NCBI GenBank assembly: GCA_964187785.1
Contig: OZ076409.1
Location: forward strand, 61,630,001 to 61,694,000
Origin: Amphiscolops sp. MND2022
Taxonomy: Eukaryota
Direction of reading: 5' to 3'
Length of the DNA stretch: 64,000 nt
Positions 7,733 through 52,311 of the stretch are shown here, piece after piece (within the stretch, counting starts at the first letter, position 1; each line of letters begins with the position of its first letter). A program made the position numbers and the translations under genes. The notes beneath the pieces were generated by a model, which made no database searches, was not told the DNA's origin, and saw only the letters and a program-made list of their open reading frames with translations.

Positions 7733-7989
7733 ATCTGTCACTGAATGGGGTTCAAACATTGGATTGGCCGCCAAACTTATGGGACTTGAACCACATTGAA
7801 AATTGGTGGCCGCAATTGAAAGACTATTTATCTCGTTGTCAGTCAAACTTCCTCAAAGAGTTGAAAGAAAATTTGATGAAAACATGGTTCCTGTGGAATT
7901 TTTAAAGTTTTGGCGTTTTAGAAAAATCCCATCATTTTTGCGCGAAGCACAGAATATACATCGAACTAAATTTCAGTCATTCCACGTTG

Positions 7990-9836
7990 CGTAAGTTAGT
8001 GAAAATAGCTGAAACGGCTGGCAATAGCATGCTTCGATATGGCTTATTTGGCAAACTAGGTATTTACTTAGTAAACGAAACATCTTAGGCAAAATTAATA
8101 TGTCATTGAACGACGTCGATGATGAAATAGTGCGAATCGGCTAAGTCCCACTTAAGAGCGGAAAAATTCTAAGACTCGACATTTGGAAACAGAGGAAACA
8201 AATCGGGAACTCCCCCCCCAAAAAAATTGTTTTTCTCAGAGACTATTAATCGTAGAGACCTGAAATTTGGCACACGTATACCTGAGCTGTTACGCTAATC
8301 GTTCATAATACAGAACCGAACGAGGAACCCCAGCCCCGGGCTATTAGCACCGGAAGTAAGCCTAGGTCGATCCCCCTACGAACTCATCTGCGAAGTACGG
8401 AATAAGTTATAGTTTATAGTATATATGGAATTGATAGCCCATAGGATATTAAGCCGTTTGCGAATATTTTCGGAACCCTACGAAGCGTGTAGAAGGAGCA
8501 CGGACCATATGTAACTAAACCCCGAACGTTATGTAAATAGCCAACGGTTGACCCGAGGATTATGAAACTTGCCCAAGATGTTCACCTAGCAACCCTAAGT
8601 AATATACATAAAAGATACATTGATCGGCTCACCACGCGCGGAGTAATGTTTGTTTAAGGCACGAGGGACCGGACACGCGGACAAGACCGATAGGTGACAT
8701 TTGACATTGGTTTGTAATATACCAAACGAACCGGAATAACGAATGTAGTTGATTGCTATTGTGAATGGAACCGTTTTTGCAACCCATGCGGAGGAAACCA
8801 CCTTAAGTGAACAAACCATACGCACCTCATGTAACTCGGGAACCATTGACCCTAGGACGGTACAACTTGGCATGTAGTAACGTTGGACGAGGACAAATAA
8901 CTTCAAGGCCACGGACGGACCTCAAAGTCATTCTAGATGGAATCCCTGAACATATAGGGAAACTTTACGCTAAAACATGTAAATCAACGTCTTTAAGTGA
9001 TAATTTATGCATTTCACTCAGTCGGAACGATTCGCGATGCAACGCACTTAAAATGGTGGAAAAGTACCGCTTACGTGTGTAGGACATTTAACCATGTAAT
9101 TGAAGGTCATTGAACGATTGGCTCGATATTAGAAATATCTCGGTTGACTTGAAATATTATTGAAATGTGAACTTTGTACAACTGTTGTTGAACTATTTGT
9201 CGTTGGCAGCAAAGAATGTCTAGCAAGGTATAATTAGACGCGTTCGCCTTGCCATAAAAGGAATAGTAAACATGAAGGTAAACTCATGCAAATTTAAGAC
9301 GCCGACGCCCTGTATGTAACAAAAATGTCAAGTATGAAAGAAAGTGAAGATGAAGCTACCCAAATCACGCGCGACAACCAAATATAATTGAGGCGGATTT
9401 GAAGTACAATTGAGTAGACACAACCGAGTTAGAGAGCTACAAGCAAGTTGAACCTCGAGACGGAGGCATGAAACTTTGCTTCGCTATAAGAACTAGTTTG
9501 TCCTTAGCTCTATGGATTGAATTTGAACAAGTCCGGGACTTGTGTTTTTGCGCTTCAAATTAGTTGACTGAATCGGGGATCTCAGTCTTATCTAGTTTTG
9601 TTATATTGATCTGATAACGATTGAAGAGACGTTTCGGTTATTGCTATTAAATTTAATTGGAATATTGAACATCTCTGTTCGTGATCGATTAACTTGATCT
9701 GAAAAACTTGAGCACGGAGAGACTTTCTAAAGAGAATTGCACGCTTATAGAACGAAACTTACTTCCCAAATTCAAACCTTTCTGTTAAGAGTTGAGCCCT
9801 TGGGGTTTCTCTCCGACCCTCTGGCTAAATTTTTTT
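7990..9836. repeat. ~1.85 kb unclassified non-coding dispersed repeat, copy 1
   Basis: Colinear with 42343-44213 from CGTAA(G/A)TTAGTGAAAA to CCCTCTGGCTAA plus a T-run. Many substitutions and no long ORF. Confidence 0.85.
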
Positions 9837-15349: not shown

Positions 15350-15399
15350 TAAAATTCGAAATTCCCGACTATACAAAGTTTTGATTCGATTTCAAAACA

Positions 15400-23272: not shown

Positions 23273-23381
23273 GGCTGGATAAACAAGCAATTTGAGAAAT
23301 ACATGTACTCACTACTCGAACCTGTCGCAAAGTTTTCCATGTTGTATCCAAGCATGCATTCTAAACTTTTCATAAACATAG

Positions 23382-23658: not shown

Positions 23659-24993
23659 TTCGGAAAATGTCGCACAGTGCCGAAAAATGTAAAAGGGGGG
23701 ACCCTTTTTGATTTATAAACACGCATTCTGTAGCAAAAACAAAAAACTCAAAGGGGGGGCCCTTTGGGGACATTAAAAAAATTTCGAAAAAAAAGTCTCA
23801 CAGTGCCGAAAAAAAATCGAAAGGGGGGGGGGTTGAAACTTTAGTCCCGTCCGGGCGTGTATGTAACGTTTAAAAAGTTATGCGCTCCCCGTTTGCCTTT
23901 AGCGGTCCAGTAGTTTAGTACTTATTTAGTAGTTGAACGTTAATTTTAACGTTCGTCGCTTCGAGTCTGTCTTAAATAAAAAAAAATAAAAAAAAATAAA
24001 AAAAACGAGTGACTGTAATAGTCGGGCTCTTTTCTTAAGAAAAGCGCCGACTAAAAACACTACACTTTGTTCAAAAAATTACAAAAAGTTCCGCACAAAA
24101 GGATCCGCACAGCAAGCTATGGTACCATTGGTATTACATGCATGTAATACCATGGTATCAAGCAATGGCCAGCCTGAAAATTGTTGTTTTAAAGTGATTT
24201 GTTTGAAGTCACAAAAGTCTTGAATGCTCACTACTGCTTTTCATGCCGCTTTTCTTACAGAAAATGCGTTTTTTATGTGAATGCCAGTGAAAAACAAGCT
24301 ATTGATGAAAGTTTTGATCAATGTCTAGCAATAGTGAGATCAGAGAGATTCGAACTTGATGCCAGTACATGACAAATGCTCTCAACACTAAACCATGCTT
24401 AAATTTACAATTTGCAGCAAAACTTTCAATTTTTAGTTGTAAAAATAGATAAAAGTGTTTATAGAGAAGCCGTAAACAAAATTCACGGACGGTGAAAACT
24501 CAAATCAAGCGAGAACTCATATCGATCAAAACTCATTTTGCAAAATTAGGTCCTACTTAAGAATTTTATCACAAAGTTTTAAGATTTTATCACAAACAAT
24601 TTGTTCAATATTTGCAAATTAGTTAATCTATAAACAACCATTAGAAATTATAATACAGTAACAGGGTTAACTATACGGGGACTGAAGAAAGTTACGGAAT
24701 GTTTCAACCAGCATTTTTTAATTGAACTACAGTAAAGTTTTGACAAAACTTAAGAGTTTTCTAGCAATAGTCAGCCAGTGCTAGCTTGGGAAACGTTCTT
24801 TTTCAACTGAACTGACTTCATACAAGAACAAGGCCCCGGAAAGAAGCAAAAACCAAGTCATGGAGAGTTTTAATAAATGAGATTAAATTACTGAGAGCTT
24901 TAAAAAAAATGATGAATGTTCAGTTGGTCCATGTATTCAGTCCAGGTATACACGTATTGCAAGAAAAACGAGCAAATACTTCCAAAAACTAAC

Positions 24994-25131
24994 TGAGACA
25001 GCTCTTTGCACTTTGGCTTTGTTCGCGGCGGCGGCTTTTTTGTTCGGACTTCCAGGGGCCGGATTGGACCATGACCCAGTCACCACTGCTGCTCCTCCCC
25101 TTGAAGTGGGCGGTTTTTTCACAGAAGCCAT
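24994..25131 (-). CDS. duplicate of putative first coding exon
   Basis: Identical peptide and donor site to 21345-21482. Confidence 0.55.
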
Positions 25132-27800
25132 AGTGAGGTGATAACTCCAGCAGCAAGTGAAAACTTCTTCACGGCCTGAGTTATAATAAAGTGAACAATC
25201 TCGCAAGTTGTGTCTTTTATCTAAAACGTTCCTGTAGTTTCGAATGGGGATTTCATTTTATATTTGACTGTTTCGTTTTTACACTTTTTTCAAACAAATC
25301 ATTCACACGACTTCAAAAAATTTGAATATTTTTGTCTGAACATACACTCTTCTTATGGAATACTACATGATTTTTTCCGGGTTTTTATAAAATATGTAAC
25401 ATTGAACAAACCTGGTTGCAATCGAGAAATAAATTATATTTTTGCCGACTGTCGTCATAACTTACTTTAACCAAAAATGTACTGCTTTGATAAAAGCTTG
25501 TTAGTAAGCTGTTGTGTATAGAAGACCACTTATCGAATTCATAATGAATGGTCAATTTTTTATAAAGTATTCAAACTACACTTGCTCAGCTAATCTAGAA
25601 AGACAGACTACAATTTTTCTGACTGTCAATGAAAAATTCGGTACGAAAATTCTTCGCGTACTTGCCAAAAATTTTCTTTCAATTGAAATAAACTTCAACA
25701 AAAAAGCATTTAAAATCTTTTGTTGAAGTCTCAAGATTCTGTGTCTATCGAAATGGCAACTAAGTTTGGTTGAGTTCGGCACATTTCGGCTTCTTTTTAG
25801 GTGTACAAAACTTTTTTCACACCAATTAGATCGGATTAGTCTCGGCCGTAACTCACGGTGCTTTATTGGATATTATTACCATAATTGTGTGAAAGAGCAG
25901 ACATGCCGTACGCGACTGAGAGCAGAATGATGCATAAAACTTGCCTCTGAATTTTTTATCATAACGAAAGAAGTCTTAGCAAAAACTGTTTCATAGCTGG
26001 CACAACGTCGAAAAAATCAGAGGCCTCATCGGTGAAATGGCTTGTGCCACGAAAGCATGAAAGGATTCTCAAAAGTATCAATGCAATTGATGATCACGAT
26101 GTATATTTTTAGTCGGCGCATTTCATGTGCAAAGTTGTCTGACTAATACATTGACTACCGTTGAAACATTTTAGAAGGAGCAACATCAAGGAAATATCAA
26201 AATCCAATATCTCAAACACTTCAATAGTTTTTGAGGAATGGTGAGAGTGAAACTCTCTTGGATTTTCATCTAAGTTCACAAAAATGTTTGCTTCAAAATT
26301 ATGAAAAATTTACGATAGGCCAATTTTAGCCAAACACAAACTTAATAGAAAATCTCAATTTTGGCTTGCTCGTCCACAAGGTGTTTGAGGAATTTTATGT
26401 TCAATCGACCCCTCAAAGTTTGCCGAAGCCGTGAAACTTTAGATAAACAGGCCGGGACCGGCCCAAATCCGCGCCATATCAAAGGCTCAAAAATAGCAAA
26501 ATGACATCATAGTGCCAAATTATTGGTGAATTAGGGACCCCTTGATGAACTTTTTCTTTAAAAAAGTCTCACAATGCCAAAAAACCTGAAATACGGACCC
26601 TTTGAGATTTTTCAACATACATTCTGTCGCAAAAAAATGAAGGTGACCCTTTGGGGAGAATTATTTTTTCCGAAAAACGTCCCACCATGCCGAAGAAAAA
26701 GCTCAAAGGTGGTCCCGCCCGGTATTGTAGGTTAAGCAGGAAAAAAGGAAAATCTTTCTGATTCAGCTCTCTGGGCCAATAGGTACATGGCGACACCTTA
26801 AAATTTTGTAGAACTTTTGATAGAACTATTTTAATCACTTCACGTGCATCGAAAAATAAATACTGACGAAAAGCAATTACTATAGTTGACTCTTTTCTCA
26901 AGAAAGGCGCCGACTAAAAAGGCTGGATAAACAAGCAATTTGAGAAATACATGTACTCACTACTCGAACCTGTCGCAAAGTTTTCCATGTTGTATCCAAG
27001 CATGCATTCTAAACTTTTCATAAACATAGTGTAACGGCAAGCTGTTATCGGTCGCTTAACACGTTAACAGAGGTGGAGGAACCTGCAGAAATGGGTGATT
27101 CGCTCGGGACAGGCGCCCATCGCCACAGATCCATTTTGCCTCCAAGGGTGAAATACGTCCCGGGGCCGCGGGTGCTTCGACGAATACTGTCCAACCGGTC
27201 CTAGTCTTTGATTGCTAATAGTAACGGGCATCTTTCTGCTCTCTAAAGACCACCGCTTAACTAGCATATAAAAACAATGCCAAGAATAAGGTAAATTTCC
27301 AGTTCCAGGGTGACATGTGAATAAGATCTAAAATTGGATAATAAGATCTAAACTAGCGCTAGCGCTACTGAATACAGCTAAAATCACTGAAAATACATGA
27401 AAACAGGCACGAATATGGCAAACCACACAGCTAAAAAGCTGGGGCGCAGGGGCTCCAAGCACCAAACAAGGATCTTTGAGCGAAAAGACTCATTTTTACG
27501 GTTTCCGCTACATAGGGTAGCATAATGCTGAAAATCGATAAAACCGGTGTTAGCACCTCAAAAAGAGTCTATTTTCGGTCGTTCTTGCCGTCTCTGGCTT
27601 CTGTCATGGCGGCGCGCCCGTATTTTTGCTCGTTCTTGCTCTTTGTTGTCGAAGTACCTGCCAATTTCGTGGAAACAGCGAAAAGAGCAATCACATGCTC
27701 AGTGCCACGTCACACATCGGATTAGAATTTTTGACAAAATATCTGAACATGTCAAGTTGCAAAATCGGTTGATATTGCTGTACCAGAGCTTGCCGTTACA

Positions 27801-27838
27801 TCACTCCCCGGGCTTTATGCATGATGTCCCTGTCATGC
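27801..27838 (-). promoter_or_regulatory. polypurine tract and upstream hairpin of element A
   Basis: The minus strand reads GCATGA-CAGGGACA-TCATGC (hairpin), then GCCCGGGGAGTGA directly before the LTR's TGT. Confidence 0.75.
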
Positions 27839-29146
27839 GGAGAGGCTGGCATTGAATACATCGCCACATCATGAGTGCAATCCACGGGGGTCTCAAACTG
27901 GTGATGTTGCAACGGTCCAGTGGCACTGTCATCTTTTGCTGATTGGGCAACCATGAGGTCTTGCTTCTAGCCATCCAGAGAACCTGCATCGTCCAGAAAC
28001 TGTTGAAACAGAACTAGCTCGAGAGCTAGAAAGCCAGTACTCAAAAATGCACCTTGAAATTGATCAAATCCAAGATTCCATACATCAATCAAAAAAGCAC
28101 CACTTTTTTAGCACGAGTTTTCAGTTTTCTGCAAAAGTCTGAATAGGATACTGCTAGCACTTTGGTTTTGGGACGTCTAAAATTTCTTTTACGGAGCGCT
28201 CACGCTCCAAAGCGCACGTGGTTCTCAGCAAAACATTTTTTCCACGGCAATAAAGTTTCAGTTTGCAGCACAGTTAAAAGTTCTTTTCGCTAAAACTTCT
28301 TTTCAGCAGTAAAACCTCTGTTTAAGAGGAAGACAAGCTGTTTCTTTGATACTTTTTTTGTACAGTTCGGCTTGGTTTGGGCAACACGCACTGATATGCA
28401 GCTCCACACCTGTATAGTAGCATCTGCCAAGGAGCGCATCAGAAGCAAACTACGAACTGCTCGTAAGAGTAAGCGCTGGAGTAAAGCAGACAAAGGTAGA
28501 TCAAATTTTGCCATTTGCAGATCAGGAGCGCGCGCGCTCCTTATTTTTCCTGATATCACGTTGGAATCTGGAGGAAACTTCTGGAAAGCTTGGAAAAGAA
28601 AAACAAAAATAGCACCATTCGGGCGCAGCAATACATGTAGAGTTTTTGGGTTATTTATTGAATTAACAGAAGTATTTGAATTCAAACATCTCAAATAAAA
28701 CTAAAACAAAAATGTCGCGACGTACGTTTACATGACTACTAAAATTACGAAACAAAGTTGCAGAAAAAACTGCTCCAACAAGAACATCACGCTGCAAGGT
28801 ATCCATTACCAAACGTAGTGATATCCTCCGGGCGTTTTCCAATTGAGTTGATGACTGTAGGGGTGTTTGTCTTCAACTGAGGCTCCCCGGGCCTTAGTTG
28901 ACTCCCCGGGCCTTAGTCGTTGAGCACCCTCTTTCACATGAGGATAGTGAGGAATGGACAAATTTGAACGCCTGACATAAAAATACAGCAGGAAAGATTA
29001 AGCGTTGACGACACCTCCTCCCCCTTTGAAATGAAGTGGAGTGTGGTTTGGACTGGATAGACATCACCATCCAATAGCAGCAGGACGTGCAGCAAGCATG
29101 AAGCATTAGGAAATCCGATAAAGAAAATCTTGGAGACTGGGTCTGT

Positions 29147-29913
29147 CTAAAGACTGGAATAGTTGTTCGGAGGACGGCCACGCCTATGTCCCTTCGGTCG
29201 ATGTGACCATGGTAGAACTTGGCGTGGTGGACGGCCACGGCGACGTCCATCATAAAGGGACAACAGAACTTTTTGCCATGAGTGCTCAAAGTCTGTGCGC
29301 GGTGGTCGACCACGTCTATGACCAGTTGGTCGAGTTTTAGCTGAACCACCAGGCAACCAATTGATAAAGACTGGCGGGTCCACCTGAATAAAATCCTGTA
29401 GCCCACCTTTAGCAGAATGTGGCTAAAAAGAGTCCTTCAGCAAACTCGGTAGCAACTTCGTAGTTGATATTAGGGACTTTGTTCCAGGGGAGTGAGAGTT
29501 GCTTAAAAAATCCTGCGATAAGGAAGTGGAGGGTGAGATTGATATTCGTTCATTCTTCGTATCATTTGAGTAGAGGTTGCGCCCGCGCAACCCATTATCA
29601 CCGGCGTGATATTCAGGCAACGTGTCAGCAATACCCATGGTTGTAGTGTCCAAAGATGTTGGGTCCACCCCATGTCTTTTGTTGGCGGTGTCAATGGTTC
29701 TGATTCGACGGCGTCTGAAATATTGATCTGCATTTGTGCTAGCGCTCGCGCTATCGCTCGCGCTAGCAGTTTCTCCTGGCAAAGCGTGCTTTGTTCCAAA
29801 AAGTCTGATATCTCATCCATCCAGAGTCCCGTAGTCCAGAGTTCGTCGAAGGCACGCAACACTGCTGACTTGAGCTGTTCAGGATCAATTTTCGAAGTCC
29901 CATAGGAGTCCAT
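29147..29913 (-). pseudogene. decayed ORF with three AT-hook motifs inside LTR element A
   Basis: GHRRGRPPR, GRRRGRPPR and GHRRGRPPN in 29147-29383. This is the same frame as 29423-29782 across one TAG, and a probable frameshift joins the ATG ORF starting at 29913. Confidence 0.55.
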
Positions 29914-30759
29914 AATTTATGACCCCTGCCGGCAATTTTTTTGAACCGTGGGATTTGCCTCGTTTGCACCCAGGAAGGTCTATTGGGTCCCTTCCGTTGG
30001 AAAATGAAGGCTTTTTGGGTTTGCCTCTTGTACAGCGGAAGTATTGAAAGTTTACAATGATAGATTTTCTGGTATTTTTTGAATTTTGTTCAAGACGTGT
30101 GTCTGAACAGAGTCAAATTCAGTTTTATCAATCGTACTGGGTACAAAATGACACAGCACAATTTGTCAGCCACACAAGTCAGAAAAATAACCTTCCGTAG
30201 CTGATAATTGCCTCCAGCTCCAAGCTAGAGCCTTTTTCAACTATTTTAGGACTTTTCAACTTTTTTCGAAAATCACTCAGATGGCTTTTACAAGTGCTGG
30301 AAACGTGGTATCGGGCTCAAAATTGGTCACGCGACCACACTTATAGCCAGCTACACTACAGTAGCAACCAATGAGAATTCAGACCACTGGGCGAGATTTA
30401 GATCTGGTACGGACGGTCCGTATCACAGTATTTCGATTGACACTATTTTTCACATGCAATCAAAGACTCTCGTCCACAGTGTTGAGCTCTCGAGCTCACT
30501 TTTTCAGCAACGGTGCACCAAATGACACCAATAAGAATAGTCCAGGGCAATGTAATCCCAACTTCCCAATAAGGTGCGCCGACAATTCCGAAAAAATGAT
30601 CCAATTCGTTACAATACACAGGATATCACAACTTCAAGTAACAAAATGCTATGATCCAGCAAGGCAGCCCACTCGATACTGATCAAATATCACACGCACA
30701 GCAATGAACTAACTGCTGGGAGTTCAAACTAGGGGTTTCCACAGGTTTCCAACACGTAG

Positions 30760-32210
30760 AAATGACTTTTTCTCACTTTCCCTGTTTTCGTCTCGGTGAG
30801 ACCTCTAAGACACAATGAATATGCACGTCCGAGAAGTGTCGAAATAAGTTCCAAGGGTTGTAGCGTGCTGGAAGGTATACAGCACTTCCGGATTGATGCA
30901 CTGACCCAAAAAGTGAGTCCAGAATTGGGGTATTAGGATCCAGTCACAGGTCAGAGGTTTTTCAGATGTTTTTTGGGTTTTTCAGCTTCACTTGAAAAAA
31001 ACTCCAGAGGCTAGCGCTAACGCTAGAAACCCAGGATCGGCTTCAAAATCAACCACACAGTCCCACGTAAGTTGAGGTACAAGGGAGTAATAGCTGATTT
31101 GTGCTGAGATGACTAGGTGAAGTTTCAACACAGTACAGACGTTCGATATCACTGTGTTCCAATATGCACTGTTCTTCACGTGTCAACCCAGATTGTGGCG
31201 AACTGCAAACAGCGCTCACGCTCGTTTTTTCGGCAACAATACGATAAGTTTGCACTGGTTACGATAGTGGGCAGCAATTTGGCCCCACTCTTTGAATAAG
31301 GTTTTCAGGCAATCCCACAAGGCTTCGTAGAATTCGCCTTCTTGCGCACCTTCTTGTGCAGTTTGTTTTAGTCAATTTCTCAACAGATATAGTAGCAATT
31401 GACACCAAACTTGGCAGACGCTGTCAGTAGGCACCAACCACGCTGTTAGAGTAGTGAAATAGACGGTGGTAGGCTTGCAGGGGGTCTCCTCAAGGATTTG
31501 GCCCTCTGCTCGTCTCGGTGAGGACTTAAGAAAATTGATGTTTTTTCAACGTCCAAGATTTTTCAAAAAACGTTCTAAGGTTCGTAGGCTGTTCAAATTT
31601 GCACAGCGCTTTCCCACAAGCACACTGGGCCAGAAAATCAACCTGGTTTAGGGCAAAAAGTCTCCAGTCACCCACAGGAAGAATTTCAAAGAATTTTTGG
31701 GTTTTCCAAAAATCGCACAACAACTCTCCAGAGGCTCGTGTGTGCACTGGAAGCGCCGCATCCAGCCCAAAATTGACCAGCAGATCTTAGGTACACGTAG
31801 GTTTACGAAAATGAACACAGAATTGAGCTGCACTCCTTCTACACAGTTTCACTTAGGTACAGACGTGCGGTATCACTATGTACCGAAATGCACTGTTTTT
31901 CACGTCTTTTTCAAGATTGCGGTCCACTGGAAAGAGCTAGCAAGCTCAAATTCTCTGCAGCAACGTAAGAACTAGCATAAATTATGATGGTGGGCTGCAA
32001 TATAGCCCCACCCGTCGGCTAAGGTGCCCGGGTTACTCGGAAAAATTAAGAAAAAACTGCCTTTTTGCGCACTTTTTTGGGCGCCGCGTTTTTCCTATTT
32101 TCTCGACAAGTATCACACAGATCGGCACCAAACTTGGTAGTTTATGTCAGTGGGCACCCACAATGCCACTAAAATGTTCGAATTGAAGCGCGAGCGCTTA
32201 TTTGAGGTTT
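30760..32210. repeat. diverged ~725-bp internal tandem duplication in element A
   Basis: Paired motifs: TCTCGGTGAG (~30791/31513), GTACAGACG...TATCACT (31133/31857) and CACCAAACTTGG (~31403/32126). Confidence 0.75.
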
Positions 32211-33895
32211 CGACCTACTATGTACGTTGTACACGAAAAAACACTGTTTTTGACGACTTTCTTCACAAATTGACCAAGAGGATCACCTCAGAAAGTGATA
32301 CGGCGGGCAAAATGGGACCAACGTGTTGCCCCACTATCCGTAGCACTGGGATAAACCCTCAATTGGTTGTGCCCGTTAGGTATAAGGCACTGACAGTCCT
32401 GCAGTTTTGGATTTTTTCGGTCCTTTTACGCTTCTCTGAAGTCGAAACGTCAGAGAGCTTTTCTCGACTTTGGTGACCGATACGCTCACCAAATTTTCGG
32501 CACTAACGTTAATTTTTGTGGTGGTTACGAAAATGCAACCACTTTTTGGCTAGGGTTCAGGAATCGATGACCCGACCCTAGCTCAGAGACAGTCCGGTTT
32601 TGTGGAAAATTGATCAAATTCAGTGCGTTTTTCCACTTTTCTCAGCACTGAATGGGAGTTTTTACACGCGGTTTTCACCACCACGCGTTATTTTTACTAC
32701 AAAAACAGAAAATGAGAGCGCGCGGGCTCCCAGGTCTCGAAAACACTGAGTGACCCAGAGGTTTTAATGATACACTCTGGCACTCCTGAAACTGGCCAAA
32801 AATCAAGGTTTTTCGACCTGTTCTCACCAAGAAAACGTTACAAACTCTCCTAAATCCTATTTTCGGTACTGTGGAGTGTGCCCCAAACTAATAGCAGCAC
32901 GGAAGAGGCAATTACATCACAATCCAGCACTCTCCCAGTGGCATTTCATAGTGGTTTTTTTGCCAATTTTGCCAAAAACCGCGTTTTTTCATGCCAAATG
33001 TGTCTCAAAAAGGTCTCCAACGGCCTTTCTGGTTGTCGTTAAATTATGTAGCATAACCCTCAAGGTTTTGGGCTGCTTTTAATTCATTTTTGCAACTGCT
33101 GTGGCTAATACTTCGAGCGCTCGCGCTCGTACCAAGAAAAGTACTCAAAAATGCCAAAAATCACGTTTTTGCGACTTTTGCACTAAAAATCGCACTTTTT
33201 TCACTGAAAACAGGTGCAAAAGCACACACAGAGTTGCAACAAGAGAAAACTAGGCTTACCAAACATTTCCCCGTCGAAAAAGGTTCATATTCAAAATTTT
33301 CGCCCACCATGAGCCATTTGAGCGACACTTCTGGTCACAAGGGGTACATCTTCACCACGCTTTTTCTCCACATCCAGACCAGATAGAGACACGCGGTTTG
33401 GACCATTAGCATCGTCTGCTATTGCACTTGCTGTCCACCAAAAACCATGCCTCTAGGACGTCTTCACGAGAAATGGGAGTAGGAAGTAGGCAACACACGA
33501 TTTGACCCCTTTGCCGCCTCGCTGGCTCGTGGCTAACCATCCACCAGTCACCTTCTTGCATGGCATACAATGGCTGAAAATAGCTCAAAAAACCTGTTAA
33601 ACACCCGTAGCCACGTGCTACGGTCCTCTACACCTGCAAAAAAGATACCCGCTGATGGGAACCTTGCAATTTTAGACGATATCTGTCAACAAATACCTGT
33701 TATCAAAACATACCATAGGTATTCGGAAAAATCCCCCGAAAGACTGGAAAAATACCAAAATATAATGTCATATCATCTAAGAAATTTGGAAAAACTCTGG
33801 GTAAACGTCTCCTTCCAGAGTCCAATCGTTCTTGGCGTCCAATACCAGGGGGTCGGAAATTTCAAAACCATATAATAGGGCAGTAATCGGAAGCG

Positions 33896-33913
33896 ATCCC
33901 TCTGTGGTCGCCA
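33896..33913 (-). promoter_or_regulatory. primer binding site (tRNA-Arg-like) of element A
   Basis: TGGCGACCACAGAGGGAT is complementary to a tRNA 3' end ...GTGGTCG-CCA, as I recall for animal tRNA-Arg(TCG). Confidence 0.8.
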
Positions 33914-36786
33914 AAAAATGATGTCTCATGTAACGGCAAGCTGTTATCGGTCGCTTAACACGTTAACAGAGGTGGAGGAACCTGCAGAAATGGGTGATTC
34001 GCTCGGGACAGGCGCCCATCGCCACAGATCCATTTTGCCTCCAAGGGTGAAATACGTCCAGGGGCCGCGGGTGCTTCGACGAATACTGTCCAACCGGTCC
34101 TAGTCTTTGGTTGCTAATAGTAACAGGCATCTTTCTGCTATCTAAAGACCACCGCTTAACTAGCATATAAAAACAATGCCAAGAATAAGGTAAATTTCCA
34201 GTTCCATGGTGACATGTGAATAAGATCTAAAATTGGGGAATAAGATCTAAACTAGCGCTAGCGCTACTGAATACAGCTAAAATCACTGAAAAAACATAAA
34301 AACAGGCACGAATATGGCAAACCACACAGCTAAAAAGCTGGGGCGCAGGGGCTCCAAGCACCAAACAAGGATCTTTAGGCGAAAAGACTCATTTTTACGG
34401 TTTCCGCTACATAGGGTAGCATAATGCTGAAAATCGATAAAACCGGTGTTAGCACCTCAAAAAGAGTCTATTTTCGGTCGTTCTTGCCGTCTCTGGCTTC
34501 TGTCATGGCGGCGCGCCCGTATTTTTGCTCGTTCTTGCTCTTTGTTGTCGAAGTACCTGCCAATTTCGTGGAAACAGCGAAAAGAGCAATCACATGCTCA
34601 GTGCCACGTCACACATCGGATTAGAATTTTTGACAAAATTTCTGAACATGTCAAAGTTGCAAAATCGGTTGATAGTGCTGTACCAGAGCTTGCCGTTACA
34701 TAGAAAATACTAAAAGCACGCATGGAGAAATTTTGTAGGAGTACATTGCAGCTTCCACTATTTCAATTAAAACTGAAAACAATTCCACTTCTTCACAGCC
34801 GCAATCACTTTTTCACGCGTAAGTTTCTCAAGTAGTAACCCAATGTAATCACCGTTCGTCAAATAGCACGCTGAATATGACGCTACTTTGAAACCTATAA
34901 TGTGACAGAAGTTTAAATGCATTGAAGTCGCGATAAAATTATTGAGGTCACAGCTGCTTTCAAAATTAGAACTGCTTCTAAATGAAACCTCCAAAACTTC
35001 GTGTCTCAAAATTGCCGCGAAACTCCAGATTCATAGTTTAGGCAGCTTGATAAAATTAAATTGAATCAGCGAAGTTTTAATGCATGGAAGTCTTTTTGAG
35101 AATTTTATAAAATCATGGAAAATTAGCTTGGTAACCTACAAAAAACTTGTAAAAAGCTTACGTAGTTTGAGCCAGGGCGAAGATACGATTTTGAAGCTCA
35201 ACAAATTGAAACAAGCTCTTATGTATAAAATGTTCAACAATCCGAAAAACAAGTCACATTTTCAGAGTCCAAATGTTCGAGCGAATTTCAGAATCAAAAA
35301 TATCTCGAAGTCGAACAAGTGTAAAATGGTGCAAAAAAAAACGAAATAATGTTTTGAACTTAGCACTCGAGTATTAAAATGAAATCTTGAGATTATAATT
35401 AACCAGGAAAATAGGACTCTTTCCCAGTTTCCCCGCCTCTAAAATTGATAAGAAAAACGCTTATACTTTCCGGCAAAATTTTTGTCCTCAATCAATTTTA
35501 GTTGAACGAAACATGAGGTATGTAAAAACTTTTTGAGAATAAAACATTGAAAGTCAAAAATGAGAACAGTACATAGAATTTACTGCTGCAGAAAAAAAAT
35601 TATCAATGCTTTTATCCTCCACTACACTTTTGATGCTGAGAATAACGATTCACAACCATTGAAAGTCATTTTTTGCAGTTTTCATCAAAAATTTCAGCAC
35701 TGATGGGGTTTATCGGAGAAACAATTTTTGAAACCTTTAACGTTTAGGAAGTTCCTTAGATAACAAAGATGTTAACAGTATTTTTGCTAGAATTTGTACA
35801 CAAACTACGAATAGCCAATTATATCATATGTTGAAACATGGGACAATGGGGTTAATTTTTTTCAAATTCTTTTTTCGAAAAAGCTTCTTGAAATACTTGT
35901 AACTAAAACCTCTAGGTTAGATTCAGAGTTACAGCGGGAAATATTTCAAACTGACTTTCTCTGTTTTATCAACAGAAAAGTCAACAAAAACGTCGCAAGT
36001 TTGTTGAAGTAGGCCGAATACGGAGTTTCTTTAGTATCGCGCGATTTAAAGGAATTGGCACTTCAAAACTATTTTGAGAACTCGTCTCTTGTGGAGGCAC
36101 TGATTTATGAGCATATTTTCCAATTTCTTTTTTTGTGGAACGCTTCGAAGCAATTGGAATTTTTCAGCAAACCAGACAACAGAAATTTTGTTGGTAAAAA
36201 TGTAACCATTGAACTTTATTGCGATCTTAAAAAGCAATATCGTTAACGGTTGCATCGGATCCATCTATCAGACTAATTTTCCAGTCTCTGCATGACTTGG
36301 CATAGGTAGCAACTATCTACATATTATTTACTTCATGTTCGGAAGACACAATGCTTTTGAATTCCAAAAAAATCATCCTGGAAATGTAGGAGCCGGAAAA
36401 AAACGTAATATTTCACCGTAAAGTTTGGTAGCTGATTTACACACAGTTTAAGGCTGAGCGAAATTTGAAATTTCAGGAGATTTGTTTAACTGCTTTCTTC
36501 CCACCTGCTCTGTTGCTTTTGTTAAAATCACTACGGCAGTTTTTTCAATTTTGCATGTGGAATGTCCACTTTGAACAGATTCTTTCAGCAAAGTCCCGTC
36601 ACGCGGCTTAGAAGGTAAAAAGCGTTTTGAATTGACGCTTTTTGTGAAACGAAAAATGTCCGATTATAACAGTGACTTTTTTCCAGAGACCACAAACCTC
36701 ACACTGAAAGGTCTGGTCCACTTTTTACTGAATTTTACTTTACTCTAAGCCTTCAAACCTTACTAGCTTTAGAATTTTTAGCTTTC

Positions 36787-36855
36787 AGCGTTTTGTCAGA
36801 ACTCTCATTACTTCTGCGCTTGGCTCACACTATCAGTAGGATTGTTGTTATTGCG
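36787..36855 (+). repeat. left copy of 69-bp target-site duplication of element B
   Basis: AGCGTTTTGTCAGAACTC...GTTGTTATTGCG is identical to 42264-42332. Confidence 0.92.
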
Positions 36856-37571
36856 TGTAACGTCAGGCAAAAGACGTTGCAGAAGTTTTTGAAAATTTCG
36901 ATCAAAAATTCGAAATGTGCGACATCAAACAAGCACATTCAAGATGGCCGACCCGGCAGGTACGAAAACCGTAGAGGAAGCAAAATAAAGGCAAAACACC
37001 ACCAGAGGATGCCCCCCACCACCCAGGGAACGAGAATGTCCGAGATGTCGTCACCCAGAAGGCGAGAGAGTCAGGAATTCTGCCATCTGCCAGCAAAAAG
37101 ACAGGGTTTTGGCAGAAAAGTGCCAAATGAGACCATTGTGCCCCGAAGATGAGGAATGATACCAGAAGCAGGAAGCCGATGATCGCCACCGAAATGTAAC
37201 TGTATACTTTATTGGGGCCTATCCCCACCTGTTTTGACTGTTTATAGCGTATTTGGATAATGTTTGAACTACTAGGTCCTCATTTTAGTCATGTGGGAGA
37301 TAGCAGGAACGCATTAGAAACCTTAAGATACGTTTTTACAGGCTTGTGGGGCGTGTCCGGACTTTGAGAGTGCCGGCGCGTCGCTTCGGAGCTCTAACTA
37401 GAGAAGCCTCCTTAGACGTTAGAAAAGTCCCCCTTGGAGACCCCTTTTGGGATCAAAAACTAGTGTCTAGGTATGTAGTAAGACAACGGTCTCCTGTTTA
37501 AGCATCCTAGGCATTGTCCCTCTTCCTAGATGTGCGTCGCTAGCCGGTCGTTACATCTGAAATAGTTTTTA

Positions 37572-37589
37572 TGGCGACCACAGAGGGAT
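37572..37589 (+). promoter_or_regulatory. primer binding site (tRNA-Arg-like) of element B
   Basis: TGGCGACCACAGAGGGAT, identical to the PBS of element A. Confidence 0.8.
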
Positions 37590-38149
37590 ATTTTTCATAT
37601 TGCGTACAAGTAGGAGCAACTTCTGCTTTCCGGCCCCGGAGGGTCCAGATCTAGGAAAACATTTTGGAGAGTCCTAGATTATTTTTATTGCATTAATCAA
37701 GCCTTTTAGGCTTTCTTCTAGCTGAATTCCTGCGTTTCCTGCATGTTTCCGAGGTCTGGAAAGAGAAATAACTGATTTACGGCAAAGTACCGTTTTGACA
37801 CCGTTTCTGCTTACCGAGATTAACCATCCGGCTTAACCGGATTCTGTTTTGAAGGGTTTTGTAGTCTCATTTCAGCTTAGTTGTAATGTATTGGGACTGC
37901 AGGGACGTGATGTGAGCGCCTCCACTAGCTGTGACGATGGTGCGACGTCCTTCACGACAACACCCTCTTGACCCACTGGTGGACCACTACGAATCGTCTG
38001 GGTTACAATCTCCTTTTTTGTTTTTGTGGCTTAAAAAGCCTATTCCCAAGCGTACTCCCATTAGTAAGAACTGAGAAAAATACCCACTGGGTATTCCGAT
38101 TGTTTTCTGAAAAAATATAGCGAGCTAGCCATAACACCCTATATAGCTC

Positions 38150-38860
38150 TAATTTCGATTTGGTTACTTTTAAAAGTCGAAATTTTTCAGACGATAGTAC
38201 GACCAATGGGAATACAATAAAAACGTTCCATTAGACCTATCAAGTCAGGAACAGAAAAATTTGTTTAGCTAAATTGTGAAAAACACCGAAAACTTTAGCG
38301 ATTTTTGTTTGAAAACGTCAACTTTGGACTTTGAGACGAAAACTGGTGAGGGCGAAGCCCTGTTCGTTTTTCTCAGAGCAATGCGAGCCACCTAAAATTC
38401 TTTTTCCCGAGCCAGATATCAGAAAACGTTATCGTCAAGCAGTTTTTTGAGGCCCTCCAACGAAATATTGAATAAGTTACCAGCCAATTTTCATTTTAAT
38501 ACAATAGCCATTTATCGGTCATCATTAGTTACAAAAGCCAAAATTTTTCAGAAGAGGGTACGGCCAGTGGCAATACAATAAAAATGTTCCACTAGACATT
38601 TCAAGCTAGGAACAAAACTTTTTAACCCGCTAATTTACTTGAAAACAAAAAAAATTAGCGATTTTTGTTTGTGAAGACCCAAAATTGGCCTAACAGACCA
38701 AATGTGGTGAGGGCGAAGCCTTGAGTGTTTGTTCCAAAGCTTTCAGAGCTGCCCAAAAACATTGTTCCCGAGCTTGGTGGTACAAAACACTACTGCCAAG
38801 ACGTTTATTACCCTTCCCCAATATAAATTGATAGTTTAACCCTTGACTTTCTATTGTTAT
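38150..38860. repeat. diverged ~360-bp internal tandem duplication in element B
   Basis: Paired motifs AATACAATAAAAA (38211/38572), TTAGCGATTTTTGTTTG, TGGTGAGGGCGAAGCC and TTCCCGAGC. Confidence 0.8.
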
Positions 38861-41800
38861 ACATAGACCTGAGTAGAGGACCCCATAGACCTGAGAGTTA
38901 TAACATCAAAACTAATAATTGAAACAATCCCAGTCCCGTGAATAAAGTTATTACACCTTATTACGTTACGTTTAGAACTATCCCGAACATCTGGGAACCG
39001 AGAAATGAAAAGTTGCCAGGGAAAATACGTATTTTTCACCTTGTTCCCAGAATGTAAAAGGTGTAACTTGAGAATTTTTTGAGAGACCTTATTTGGAACC
39101 TACCAGGTTTCGCTTGCCTATTTTCTGTTATTATAGAGTGTAACATTACAAACACAGAAAACCGCGAGTGATTCCAACCAGTGGTTGTTGAGAAATAGCC
39201 GAAAACGCGTTATTTTTGCGACATTTTGGGAACCATGTAGTAGTGCTTCCAGCACAGGTCGAAATCTCTCCTAGTAGGAGCAGCCTCAAACGGATTGCAC
39301 CAGCGTGTAGACCATAAAAAGTTACGTTAGTGGTGTAATTTTCGTAGCGCTAGCATTACTAGTGATTGAGAAATCTTAGCCGCAGTTTTGCTCAAAAATC
39401 GTGTGAAAATGTCGAAAAATTGGAATTTTAGTTGAGCATAGTGCAATACCTCGCAGGTATCCCAACACTAAAATTCTTGCATTTTCGTGCGCACGGCACT
39501 GGATCACGACAATTTGTGCAGTTTGAGCAGCCGGCTACTAGCCAAAGCTGAGAAATTGACATTTTTGCGATTTTTGACCCGAAAAAGTGGTACCTCTGGT
39601 ACATCAAGGTTTTGTCACTTCATATCGCCAAATGTTGATCAAGACACCTCGCCCTTCTGTTTTTCTGTTACGTAGGCAAAAGTTACGCTCGCATGCAAAA
39701 TTTCAGGTGGCTGGGACGCCTCGAAGGCGTGTTTGACCACTTTTTGTGAATTTCACGACATAGTCAATTTTTCAGTGATCATTGTTAAGTGGCCGTGACA
39801 CCCACAGGGTCATTTTTGACCCAATCGGAGAATTATTCCCCACGATTCAGCCAGTGTAATAGACGGTGTGAAATTTTCAGATCGCTAGCAGCGCTAGAAG
39901 TGATTTTCACCTTCCCCGGAGGTGCATGTTGACGAGAAAATTGTTGATTTTGGGCATTTTTGCAAAAAATCACGTAGTTTTTCTCAGTGTACGTGCCAGT
40001 GAGGGCCAAGACGACTCAATTAGCATACCAAGCGCCCTCAGGACGTCTTCTTGAATCACTTTGATTAGTGCTAAGCTGACCCTAAGATCTCGGGTCTCTG
40101 AGAAAACCGGTCTACGAGACATAGAGGTGAAAAACCGAAAATGGAACTTCGCTTCCTGACTGCTATCAAAGTCACCCAAGTGCAATCTATCCATTGTGAA
40201 CATGCAGGCTCGATGTTTTGTGTACCCCGTGGGTGCAAGAGCGCGTTTTTAGGCACTTTTAGAAGTTTAGACTTTGTACGCAGTGCGTCTCAAAACAGAA
40301 CAACAAGTGCAGTAGCGACTACCATAGTCGAAAAAGAACGCTTTTTCTGATCGTGCTACGATCGTAAGGCAAGAAAGCACTTCAAACTCAGTGTCCATTG
40401 TTCTACTCACCCCCAAGGTCTACCCGTAGTCCCTATTTACATTTTGGCCATCACTTGTGCTCTCCAGAAACATGGCAACATGAGTGACAAGCGGACATTT
40501 CAGACAATCTAACATCTGTAGCCAAGCAGGCTTCTCAAAAAATCAGTGTTCGCTGCTCAATTCATGCCTAAGGTGTACATTGGTGCTCGGTACCACAGTT
40601 GCGTGAACCATGTCGATGTGAAAACACCGGACAAGAGATTGGCCCGGGGAGTACCCATACTCTCCCGAGAGAAGTCAACACCAAGCATGATGAAACACCT
40701 AGAGCTTCGAAGCTCTGAGAACTGCTTGGCCAGCGGCCGTGCTTTTAGAACCCGAATGATTGCTCTGGAACTTGTTTTTAATGCCGAAGACTGTTTTCAT
40801 GATCTATCATGCCTGATTTTTGACTTTTATTGGTTCTGCTCTATCATCGTTAGTGACATTGTCCCCTCTTGAGAAGTAGTTTGTTTCCATCTCTTGCATA
40901 TACGCTGGTGCTTGTACTACCTGGACAATAACTTTAACTGAGCGTACACTGCTGACACAATAGATTGAATAGTTCCTCATTTTGGTGATATTATTGATTT
41001 TTTGAGGCCTGTTTCACCATTAGTGCTAATTATTGTGCAATTTCGGTTGGCCATGAACTTTGCAAGACCACAGCTGTTACTTTTATTTTTCGCTTTACGA
41101 GTGCTATCGTGCTTTTTGTAAAACATAACCTATCAGGTGGGCCCCTGGCCAGTGCCAAACCTGTTGTGATGAGTGCTTTTTATGCAGATGCAATAAGGTG
41201 CTAGAATTTTTGAAATTTTGGTGCGAAATTAAAAGTTTGAAATTGTTTTGAATATAAAGCTAAGTGTCTAAAGTTGCTAATATTTTTCCAGTGCAAGAAC
41301 CCGTTGTTGGTGTGGAATCCAAGGAAGCCTGCTAGGCTGGCAAAAACTCATGTTTTTGGGCAATAACGTGTTTTTGGGCAACGACTTCCATTTAGATTCC
41401 TGAAGTACCATGTTGCAACAGTATCACTGGATCACTGGATGGTAGCAACCAAGATGTGAACGTCCTTTCTCGTTTGTCGAGGACGACAAACTGCGGCCCG
41501 GGGAGGATGTAACGTCAGGCAAAAGACGTTGCAGAAGTTTTTGAAAATTTCGATCAAAAATTCGAAATGTGCGACATCAAACAAGCACATTCAAGATGGC
41601 CGACCCGGCAGGTACGAAAACCGTAGAGGAAGCAAAATAAAGGCAAAACACCACCAGAGGATGCCCCCCCCACCACCCAGGGAACGAGAATGTCCGAGAT
41701 GTCGTCACCCAGAAGGCGAGAGAGTCAGGAATTCTGCCATCTGACAGCAAAAAGACAGGGTTTTGGCAGAAAAGTGCCAAATGAGACCATTGTGCCCCGA

Positions 41801-42263
41801 AGATGAGGAATGATACCAGAAGCAGGAAGCCGATGATCGCCACCGAAATGTAACTGTATACTTTATTGGGGCCTATCCCCACCTGTTTTGACTGTTTATA
41901 GCGTATTTGGATAATGTTTGAACTACTAGGTCCTCATTTTAGTCCTTATTCACTCAATATAATGTATTTCAGTTAGACACCTTTTTGGACCTCGGAAGCA
42001 TGTGGGAGATAGCAGGAACGCATTAGAAACCTTAAGATACGTTTTTACAGGCTTGTGGGGCGTGTCCGGACTTTGAGAGTGCCGGCGCGTCGCTTCGGAG
42101 CTCTAACTAGAGAAGCCTCCTTAGACGTTAGAAAAGTCCCCCTTGGAGACCATTTTGGGATCAAAAACTAGTGTCTAGGTATGTAGTAAGACAACGGTCT
42201 CCTGTTTAAGCATCCTAGGCATTGTCCCTCTTCCTAGATGTGCGTCGCTAGCCGGTCGTTACA

Positions 42264-42332
42264 AGCGTTTTGTCAGAACTCTCATTACTTCTGCGCTTGG
42301 CTCACACTATCAGTAGGATTGTTGTTATTGCG
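42264..42332 (+). repeat. right copy of 69-bp target-site duplication of element B
   Basis: Identical to 36787-36855 and followed by TGTA. Confidence 0.92.
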
Positions 42333-42342
42333 TGTAGAGATT

Positions 42343-44213
42343 CGTAAATTAGTGAAAACGGCTGAAACGGCTGGCAATAGCATGCTTCGATATGGCCTAT
42401 TTGGCAAACTACGTATTTACTTAGTAAACGAAACGTCTTAGGCAAAATTAACAAGTTAGTGAGTGACGTCAGCAATTAAATTGTCCGAACCAGTTAAGTC
42501 AGAGTTGATCTCTGAGGGCGAATTTTACTAAGTCCCACTTTCAAGCGAAATTCTTCTAAGATACACTAGGAAAAACTGATCGTCATAAATCTTTACACCC
42601 CCCCCCAAACGGTTTTTCTCAAAGAGTATTAATCGTAGAAACCTGAAATTTAGCACACGTATACCTGAGCTGTTATGCTACCCGCCTATAAAAACGGAAC
42701 TGAGCTGAGACCCCCCAGACTCAGGCTATTAGCACCGGAAGTGACCTAGGTCGGCTCCCCTACGAACTCATCTGCGAAGTACGGAATAAGTCATATTAAA
42801 TATGGAATTGATAGCCCATAGGACGTAAAGCCGTTTGCGCATAGTTTTGGAACCCTACGGCGCGCGTAAGAGGCGCACGGACACTATGTAAATAAACCCC
42901 GAAAGTTATGTAGATAGCCACCGGATGACCCGAGGATAATGAAACTTACCCAAGATGTTCACCTAGTACCCCTAAGTAATGTACATGAAAGATACATTAA
43001 TCGGTCCACCACGCGCGGAGTAATGTTTGTTTAAGGCACACGGGACCGGACGCACAGATCCGACCGCTAAAAGACAATCGACCTGGGCTTGTAGTACCTC
43101 ATACGAACCGGAATGATGAATGTAGTCGATTTATAACCCGAAGGAAACTGTATTTGTAACCCATGCGGGAGTGACCGACCTAAGTAAACAAATGATACGC
43201 ATATCATGTAACTCGGGAACCATTGACCCTAGGACGATATAACTGGGCATCTGGCATTTTTGGATGACGCCAAATAATTTCAAGGTCACCGATGGACCTC
43301 AAGGTCATTCTAAATGCAACCCCTGAGGAGATAGAGAAACGTATATTAAAACATGTAAATCAGCGCCGGTTGCATGATAATTTATGCAATTCAGTCAGGC
43401 GAGAAGATTTGCATTGCAACGCACTTAGAAGGTCGGAAAGGTATCCCTTACACGTAGAGAACATGTAAACCATGTAGTGGAAGGTCGTTGAGCAATTTCT
43501 GCGATGTTAAAAATATCTCGGGTGACTCGAATTTTTCTTGGTATGTGAACTTTCTACAATCTTTGTTGCTTTATTTGTCGTTGGCGGCAAAGAATGTTTA
43601 GACGAAGAATAACCAGTGGCGTTCGCTGTGTCATAAAAGGAATAGTAAACATGAAGGTAAACTCATGCAAAATTAAGACACCGACGCCTTGTAGGTAACG
43701 AAAATGTCAAGTATGATAGAAAGTGAAGATGTAATCACCCAAAACACGGGCGATGAATAAATATAATTGAGGCGGATTTGAAAAATACTGAATAGACACA
43801 ACCGAGTTTTAGAGCTACAAGCAAGTTGAGCCTCGAGACGGAGGCAAGAAACTTGGCTTCGCTATAAGAACTGGTTTGTCGTTAGCTCTAGAGATTGAAC
43901 TTGAACAAGTCCGGGACTTGTGTTTTTGCGCTTCGAATTAGTTGACTGAATCGTGAGTCTTAGCTAGTTTTGTTATATTGATCTGATAACGATTGAAGAG
44001 ACGTTTTGGTTATCGCAATTAAAGTTAATTGGATTGTTGGATTAATTGGATCTCTTTTCGTGATCGATTGTCTTGAGCCGAAAAACTTTAGCACGGTGAC
44101 ACTTTCTAAAGAGATTTGCACGCTTATAGAACGAAACTTACTCACCAAATTTAAAACTTTCTGTTAAGAGTTGAGCCCTGGGGTTTCTCTCCGACCCTCT
44201 GGCTAATGTTTTT
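42343..44213. repeat. ~1.87 kb unclassified non-coding dispersed repeat, copy 2
   Basis: Colinear with 7990-9836 in the same orientation and with the same end points. Confidence 0.85.
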
Positions 44214-48671: not shown

Positions 48672-49724
48672 TCACTCGTTAAATTTCGACATCGCTATCC
48701 TTCTAAGAATGTAATCGACAATAAACGATGGATCGTAGCCGAACGCCTCATACTCGAACTTTCTTCGTTCTATGATCTTCTTCACATCTTCGATGTTGAC
48801 ATCGTGAAATATTTTCGGATCGCCCAGTTTCAAAGGACAGCTCTGGGACGATGCAATTTTAGACGAAACGTGGTTCAAGTTGAAATGCTTCCAAAGTCTC
48901 GTTTTGTTGTATACTAAATAAACCAAGTCATCAGTCATGGTTTCAAGTCGTCCAATAAATTTATACTTCAAAGTACAAGGCGCACAAACATCAAAGAATC
49001 CGTTAAAATGTGAATCGGACATCAGTGCGTCGTTTGTTGACAAATATTTAAAAACTTGACCCAAGGTTGGATTTCGGTCCAGATTTTGTTTCAACGCCTT
49101 TCTGTACATCAGCTGAACTGAAGCACTGTCGCAAAATTTGTTGAAATATGACGAAATGATTCTCATAATTGGTTCTCTAGTAAACATGTAGCCTTTATAA
49201 CTAGACGCAACTTGCTGATAATTTGAACTTGTTAGTCTCTCAATTTGCTCATCAACAACTGGATGCTGAAAATTCTTGTGGTAAAAAGTTTGGTTGGGGT
49301 GAAACGCGTTCCATAAAACATAAGCCCTGTACGTTGTTCCGCTTTTGGCAACACGACATTCAAAGATTCTATGATCACTGAGAACACTGAATCTTTTTCC
49401 ATAGTTTGAAACCAAATTGGACAAGCTCTTCTTTTTCAAACTCGGGTTTCGTTCGCAAAATTTTTCCAGTGTCTCTAAACGTTTTTGTTGTCTTTCATAG
49501 GCGAACAATCGTTTCTCCTCCTCCAAGTTTCCAAAAACGGGCTCTTGGTCAGCTTGGCTTTTGAGGTCATTTTTACGCGTTGCTTCCATTTCCTCAATTT
49601 TTGGCTTGAACCAGAAAAGCAATAGGCAAGCAATGGTCAAGAATATAGACGTGGCACATCCATTGGAAATTTTGGGATTCATTTTGCTGGAATTAAATTG
49701 TCTTCGATTGAAGCACGACCCCAT
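48672..49724 (-). CDS. carbohydrate sulfotransferase, Sulfotransferase-2 family (CHST8-14/HNK-1ST-like), single coding exon
   Basis: N-terminal TM helix (IFLTIACLLLFWF), 5'-PSB CRVAKSGTT, 3'-PB FTREPIMRIISSY, and DSHF...CAPCTLKYKFIGRLETMTDD. ATG at 49724 or 49682. Confidence 0.93.
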   Translation of the reverse strand: MGSCFNRRQFNSSKMNPKISNGCATSIFLTIACLLLFWFKPKIEEMEATRKNDLKSQADQEPVFGNLEEEKRLFAYERQQKRLETLEKFCERNPSLKKKSLSNLVSNYGKRFSVLSDHRIFECRVAKSGTTYRAYVLWNAFHPNQTFYHKNFQHPVVDEQIERLTSSNYQQVASSYKGYMFTREPIMRIISSYFNKFCDSASVQLMYRKALKQNLDRNPTLGQVFKYLSTNDALMSDSHFNGFFDVCAPCTLKYKFIGRLETMTDDLVYLVYNKTRLWKHFNLNHVSSKIASSQSCPLKLGDPKIFHDVNIEDVKKIIERRKFEYEAFGYDPSFIVDYILRRIAMSKFNE

Positions 49725-51239
49725 TAGCCAAAAAATCGATAAAAGCACGAGAAAGTAAATTTTTGATGTTTAATATTTAGAAAATAAGAATGATCAGTTT
49801 CTTAATAAAATGGTTAATAAATGCGATTATAATTTTTAAATGATTTTCAGTGTGCAAACAAGGATCCTGGAAGTGCAGACATGACAATCGAAAAAATAAC
49901 CAAAATTTTTCAACGACTCCAGTAAAGTCAGCAAATTAGTCAAGTGATACGTACACTGAAACGATTTATGGAGTTATTCTTAATCGGTGTGAGTGTGTTA
50001 TCAAACTACAATGCCGGATTTTTTTCATGCAGATGTGACATGATGGAACGCCTGAATGAACAGAAAAACATTATTGCCAAAGTTTGAAATTCAGAAGAGA
50101 CTAAGTTAAACGTGAATAATTCCAGAAGTTTCCCGGTAGCTTAAATTCATATATCTTCAGTAGAAGTTCCGAAAGTTGTTCTATAGTAGTTTTATACGTG
50201 ATTTAAAAATGGAAAAACTAATTTAATTCATTGTTGATTCGAATATTTCTGTGAGAATATTCCCGGCCAAATTTGTTCATATAATTTTAACTTCAAGTGA
50301 TAAAACTACTAACTTTTTTCTGATCAACTTACTGTTACATCTGTATACAGAATACCACAGTTGAAAGAAAACTGAGAAAAATAAATATTGAAATTTCATG
50401 ATTTTATTATAAAGTTTTATTCCATGAATGCAAAATATACCAAACAATTCTTTTATTTCACTTAGCTGTAAAAAATTCGAAGCTCTGTTTTCTGTTCCTT
50501 AGTTGACTAATTAAAGGTTTGAAAGTTTTGAAAATGAACTTTAGACCAAGGTAACAAAAAACAAGATATCAAAAACAAGGTAACAAAAACAAGGTAACAA
50601 GGAAATAAGCCCGCTAACGACCAATATATTTTCCACCCGAAGACTATTTGCACTCTTTGCCTTGTGGTGTTTTCCATTCTCTTTTGCATGCAGGCAAAAC
50701 TCATCGATGCAGGCCAACGTTTCCAAGATTGAAAATACGTATTCAATAATATTTCAGCTTATGCAGAACTAAATATTTTGTTTTTCATACCAGTTAGGTT
50801 TCTTACCACTTCACTGTGTAAATAGAAACGATCAAGTGTGATAATTATTTTCCGCCCATATTCCATATTTGCCATGTTCCAATGTCGTACCCAAAATGAA
50901 AGGATTCACCCATGAAATTTGTTGACGACTAGCAAACTCAGTGCGATAAGAACGAATTGAACAACAACTGTAATTTAGTATGAATTCTGAAATACAGAAA
51001 TTGTTACTACTGTTTTGCCACTATGGCTAACTTTGACAGGCTGTTAACAACACGTAATTTCATTATTTTCACACTTTCAATTTCTAACAGTTAGTTCAGA
51101 GTATATCTAGGCTCTACCACACTTCCCTCTTTGATTGGATAGGTTGTGTACAATGGCAGAAACACACATTAGATGTTAAGGCATCAATTTTAACTTGGAT
51201 AAGATGTTTTTACTGTTTTAGGTGTTTCGCGGGCTATTA

Positions 51240-51791: not shown

Positions 51792-52311
51792 TTACTCCTG
51801 ATGTACTTTGGTCACCATCACCATGTTTCCAAGCCAATCAGGCTTTTTGGGTACTCTCGTTGATTTTCTCACGACTTTCCTCTCCGTTTCCCATTTCACC
51901 TGTCCTTTTCTTGGTGCAGTCTGTGGTAGACCTTCGTCTTCGATTTTTCGATTTTTCTCGTCATCTTCCTTCATTCCTTTTTTCATCTACTTTTTGTTCT
52001 GTTGTCTTTATTTCCTGTTGTGGGTTTTCTCTCCCTGCCTTTATCGATTCTATACACTCAATAATTTCTTCATTGTGTTCCATTTGATTTGCAATAGATG
52101 GTTGACCCATCTTATCGCTGCTCAAAGATTCCCGCCAAAAGGGCCGAATTGGGTCAAGTGGCACTGGTGCTCGCTCCTTCGTTTGCCATAGCCACACCTC
52201 GTTTCGATATCGTTACTTGCTTTCATCATTTGGCCAGGCCGGTGATTGTATTCTCGCCCTGGTTCGTTATTCTTCCTTTCATCTTCTTGAAATTGTCCTT
52301 CAGTTTTGTGA
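51792..52311 (-). pseudogene. C-terminal tail of a Ty3/Gypsy pol (integrase) ORF
   Basis: Ends in RKSTRVPKKPDWLG, a typical Gypsy integrase tail motif, and is contiguous with the integrase-derived array. Confidence 0.65.

Follow-up and report, generated by a model that had tools for sequence, protein, structure and literature searches.

A 5.4-kb LTR retrotransposon (element 1) in the 64,000-nucleotide stretch of DNA analysed here (the window) lies between two identical copies of a 69-bp sequence that, judged against a diverged paralogue of the site, is host target DNA, and the right-hand copy runs directly into TGTA, the four nucleotides with which the LTR itself begins. We regard this arrangement as the probable outcome of one-ended integration of a non-autonomous element whose U3 end was joined to the target by host repair. 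The weights that we attach to this and to the competing explanations are matters of judgement rather than computed values.

Element 1 is a young non-autonomous LTR retrotransposon that we do not place in Gypsy, BEL/Pao or Copia. It has two direct LTRs with TG..CA ends on the forward strand; the 5′ LTR (36856..37555) is 700 nt long and reads TGTAACG..CGTTACA, and the 3′ LTR (41508..42263) is 756 nt long and ends exactly at CA. Aligned with each other, they show two substitutions in 699 columns (0.3%) in addition to indels of 2, 55 and 1 nt. The 3′ LTR has 55 nt (41945-41999) that the 5′ LTR lacks, among them an AT-rich TATA-like stretch. Across the edge of this indel, positions 41964-42007 are 70% complementary to 37737-37780, which suggests that the difference arose by deletion in the 5′ copy. 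The 3′ LTR segment folded no better than shuffled sequences (z 0.92).

The internal region (37556..41507, forward strand) is non-coding. None of its 58 ORFs of at least 40 amino acids reached the Pfam cut-off, the only two weak matches were to unrelated families, and no gag-pol coding is present. A protein encoded on another contig, P0319, matches the internal region at 88-91%, which indicates that other copies of element 1 exist. A short purine run resembling a polypurine tract (PPT; 41500..41507, forward strand) adjoins the 3′ LTR inside the motif CCCGGGGAG, which is common to element 1 and to a related LTR element on the reverse strand of the window (element 2; 27030..34700) that also has the same termini. 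An 18-mer starting with TGG that resembles a primer-binding site (PBS; 37572..37589, forward strand) is likewise identical in the two elements, but it lies 16 nt past the end of the 5′ LTR in element 1 and 15 nt past it in element 2, in both cases behind a T-rich spacer (37556-37571 and 33914-33928, respectively). The 18-mer may correspond to the 3′ end of a tRNA-Arg; no tRNA gene with which to compare it was found within the window, and Rfam and ARAGORN scans returned no match. With a PBS at this offset, the U5 end of the cDNA should carry a long extension, although the U5 junction of element 1 is the clean one.

Comparison of sequences within the window shows that positions 36787-36859 and 42264-42336 are identical across 73 nt, of which 69 lie outside the LTR and four (TGTA) overlap its start. 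The left copy of the host duplication thereby occupies 36787..36855 and the right copy 42264..42332, both on the forward strand, and the host TGTA follows at 42333..42336. This bears out what the first-pass annotation had noticed, namely an identical 69-bp stretch on both sides of the element whose right copy continues into the first four nucleotides of the LTR. Of the lengths from 1 to 299 that were tried, only 69 gives an exact duplication; the 69-mer occurs at only two places in the whole window, and its first 28 nt are found exactly twice at up to three mismatches and not at all in 100 shuffles. The absence of any change between the two copies is expected, with a probability of 0.82 if the copies and the LTRs have the same age.

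DDE retrotransposon integrases typically generate target-site duplications (TSDs) of 4-6 bp. Neither element conforms to this canonical outcome, the duplication being 69 bp long in element 1 and 3 bp in element 2. The two junctions of element 1 also differ in kind. At the U5 junction the LTR ends exactly at CA and shares 0 nt of homology with the base before the duplication, which is weak evidence since its chance probability is 0.68. At the U3 junction the LTR start is equally exact and there are 4 nt of flush homology (TGTA). A TGTA anywhere within the first 70 offsets is common (chance 0.28), so that the signal lies in the boundary of the duplication falling exactly on TGTA, for which the chance directly after a fixed junction is 0.0047.

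The 69-mer belongs to the target rather than to the element, as we conclude from a paralogue of the host repeat in which element 1 landed. This paralogue (7896..9835, forward strand) is 81% identical to 42343-44213 and, being diverged, serves as a proxy for the empty allele. From the upstream GAATTTTT anchor to the downstream CGTAA anchor the site measures 94 nt with one 69-mer, which is the spacing of the paralogue, and 163 nt with two. Along an ungapped diagonal, the paralogue matches the 69-mer plus 10 nt at 38 of 79 positions (shuffle mean 20), and none of 20,000 shuffles reached 38. When variants of the empty site were aligned locally to the paralogue under permissive settings, the scores were 393 with one copy, 412 with two and 356 with none; chance upstream matches dominate these scores, for which reason we base the support for a single copy on the diagonal without gaps.

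The same asymmetry appears at the junctions of element 2, an element not chosen for this trait. Its LTRs differ by 13 substitutions in 771 positions, and it is flanked by a 3-bp duplication (CTA) after which the downstream flank continues with TGT, with 0 nt of homology on the U5 side. The chance of a TGT at that offset is 0.018, and the pattern as a whole would arise from unrelated flanks with a probability of 0.0006. Element 2 also carries 14-bp perfect terminal inverted repeats, and 277 nt of its 3′ LTR are included in the unit of a 3.65-kb tandem duplication (20010-23658 and 23655-27306; 99.5% identity), this piece showing no differences to the 3′ LTR of element 2 and four to its 5′ LTR. 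A 158-bp near-perfect palindrome (19758-19915) precedes this tandem duplication by about 95 nt.

From the structure, the junction homologies and the origin of the 69-mer we infer the following enzymatic steps. The non-autonomous element would have been mobilised in trans, and integrase would have linked the CA of its U5 end to the top strand where the 69-mer begins, which would have set the left limit of the duplicated stretch. The U3 end would not have been transferred by integrase; instead its 3′ terminus, which reads TACA on the bottom strand, may have paired with the first TGTA of the target downstream, and host repair synthesis would then have duplicated the intervening 69 nt. Extension of either the nicked flank or the cDNA end could have supplied this copy, and the product is the same in both cases. 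Element 1 combines the features expected of aberrant one-ended integration: a regular junction at one end, a short homology at the opposite one and a duplication of host DNA. This reading is favoured by the intact U5 end without homology beside an intact U3 end with 4 nt of flush homology, by the use of the TGTA that offers the first match of 4 nt on the downstream side of the insertion point, by the one-copy empty site that keeps the anchor spacing of the paralogue, by the identity of the two copies, by the route described for HIV and ASLV (PMC5041404) and by the recurrence of the junction asymmetry in element 2. It is weakened by three earlier TGT sites downstream (offsets 7, 56 and 59) that element 1 left unused, though element 2 makes do with 3 nt of homology.

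The leading rival, to which we give a modest minority share of belief, begins with concerted integration and a normal 4-bp duplication (AGCG), after which the left flank would have been extended by 65 host bases and have rejoined the LTR at GCGTGTA, either during gap repair or later against an empty allele. The 69-mer starts with AGCG and ends with TGCG, so that under this assumption the match at the left junction grows from 4 to 7 nt, GCGTGTA being the same 7 nt that stand in the host at the far end of the duplication. The suffix match is 3 for a 4-bp site and 0 for sites of 3, 5 or 6 bp; the chance of this extension, 0.063 (6.3%), counts against one-ended integration and is suggestive, but it is not decisive between the two leading models. 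A template switch of this kind also accounts for the three skipped TGT sites, and element 2 can be read in the same manner as a 4-bp site, CTAT, from which one T was lost by mutation or sequencing error. Against these points, the account needs a second rare event that spared the LTR start, and this in a copy that is still very young (two substitutions in 699), the 4-bp duplication length of the family is an assumption, and the literature searched yielded no paper documenting such a switch for LTR elements. The earlier proposal that integration was not concerted and that the U3 end was joined by microhomology-directed repair stands in part; the geometry fits and the route is the most likely one, while the mechanism itself is inferred and the route through a 4-bp duplication, which that proposal did not consider, is equally compatible with the sequence.

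An error of assembly or consensus at a heterozygous insertion, by which sequence of the empty allele was carried into the left junction, seems to us rather improbable. The 7-nt match would have been available for a switch, and the window may hold errors, as a frameshift at a short homopolymer within the ORF of element 2 sets it apart from a second contig. However, the contig carrying the window (221,506 bp, no N) resolves both a 3.6-kb tandem duplication of 99.5% identity and a long satellite, which points to long reads, and a 65-nt chimera at a unique junction would then be unlikely. The satellite occupies 52311-64000, with units of about 770-950 bp that are 81-97% alike and a strong strand skew.

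A contig of 47,554 bp probably spans the insertion site. It encodes P0317, which is identical at 350 of 350 positions to the sulfotransferase of the window, an intronless ORF at 48675-49769 on the reverse strand (PF03567, E 2e-20), and P0004, which among 140 aligned stretches is the closest to the ORF of element 2 and shares its stop; the two proteins are placed on one contig by its equal size only. The sulfotransferase gene, together with the repeat landscape, points to a eukaryotic host. This contig has no member in two clusters of element 1 internal ORFs, nor in a cluster of flank ORFs. Exact matches to ORFs spanning the junctions were absent from the protein collection searched, which therefore offers no independent support for the junctions.

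We consider it most improbable that the flanks are a pseudo-TSD, in which a 69-bp tandem pair existed beforehand or arose by rearrangement between duplicated segments, with the element between the copies. This model has been raised for HML-2 (PMC5488345), and the window does contain tandem duplications with identical copies (32 and 46 nt); insertion into an existing pair would nevertheless have added a 4-6 bp duplication of its own at one junction, where none is present, the paralogue has a single copy, and the flush TGTA would be left unexplained. The small tandem duplications of the window measure 32, 46 and 161 nt (15286-15350, 17790-17940 and 13720-14046). Equally remote is the idea that the complete cDNA entered a staggered break without integrase, its ends annealing through sequence derived from the primers, a pathway that exists in wild-type Tf1 (PMC11042837) and that is largely refuted for element 1 by flanks with 0 nt of homology to each of the spacer, PBS and PPT and by two exact LTR ends.

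Returning to one-ended integration, the recurrence of the asymmetry raises the question of habit. It is conceivable, though we hold it to be doubtful, that elements with TGTAACG..CGTTACA termini and an offset PBS habitually integrate asymmetrically, with integrase acting at U5 and repair at a nearby TGT(A) completing U3. Such a habit, as tentative as it is, would yield duplications of variable length, here 3 and 69 bp, and two copies cannot establish a rule. The freely available literature that was searched contained no report of a family with habitual microhomology joins at U3.

The cargo ORF of element 2 (28897-29916, reverse strand), which includes three RGRPP (AT-hook-like) motifs and is split by frameshifts and a stop in the window, offers a way into the wider family. 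Of two candidate sets, 39 of 90 and 116 of 1,147 were relatives, and 153 relatives were counted at E up to 0.001; ENA assemblies hold more than 150 of them, up to about 460 amino acids long. With this many relatives the element family is large enough to distinguish accident from habit. The relatives examined, in sets of 10 and 20, matched no Pfam family, and reverse transcriptase and integrase were absent from them as well as from elements 1 and 2. A profile search with this ORF gave no confirmed locus in three collections, and atlas searches yielded no hit of use. The pattern of LTR end plus PBS had no matches in viral and metagenome contigs and that of the LTR start none in prokaryote genomes; a looser pattern retrieved 26 viral loci, none of which (0/26) is similar to element 1 or 2.

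Taken as a single event, element 1 would be a clean natural germ-line example, outside the vertebrate retroviruses, of a repair route that has been studied mainly with drugs and mutants. The one-ended route gives rise to short duplications of host DNA, and annotation tools that require TSDs of 4-6 bp fail on its products. Should the asymmetry hold across the family, these elements would represent an LTR lineage that normally completes integration by host repair, and with a family of many copies the events of the half-site pathway could be counted within a single genome.

Non-autonomous LTR retrotransposons of the LARD type possess two TG..CA LTRs, PBS and PPT motifs and a length above 4 kb, and lack gag-pol. 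Element 1 resembles them in its TG..CA LTRs, its PBS-like and PPT-like motifs, its length of more than 4 kb and its lack of gag-pol, and departs from them in the PBS-like motif lying 15-16 nt from the LTR. Troyka elements share the 3-bp duplication seen at element 2, but they have CG..CG termini and LTRs of 100-400 bp (Kojima 2025; PMC12440569), and we reject this identity for elements with TG..CA termini and LTRs of 700-770 bp. In Tf1, too, cDNA is joined by host repair via short homology, although there the homology is to primer sequence of the PBS or PPT (Li et al. 2022; PMC11042837), whereas that of element 1 is to the LTR terminus, with none to PBS or PPT.

The closest precedent for the product comes from HERV-K (HML-2), whose LTR elements likewise lie between long host duplications. 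In the sections of the study drawn on here, duplications of more than 10 bp occur at 8 of 451 sites and range from 13 to 450 bp, one of 61 bp has no mismatches, and empty alleles were confirmed for cases of 111 and 250 bp (Kahyo et al. 2017; PMC5488345), which places 69 bp within the known range. HML-2 differs in being a vertebrate retrovirus, and the same sections leave the mechanism open and give no analysis of junction microhomology. For the route, the nearest parallel is HIV-1 and ASLV, in the model of Varadarajan et al. (2016; PMC5041404). There the 3′ end that was not integrated starts synthesis on host DNA close by, in most cases where the two share a short homology, and a duplication results when recombination takes place on one side. 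As in element 1, one end is normal, the other is joined by host enzymes at short homology and host DNA is duplicated; the differences are that the retroviral events were provoked in cultured cells with drugs or mutations, that their duplications often span hundreds to thousands of bp, and that the aberrant end is often truncated, which that of element 1 is not, a contrast that weakens the one-ended reading (PMC5041404). Both long duplications at LTR elements and the model of one-ended integration are already published (PMC5488345; PMC5041404).
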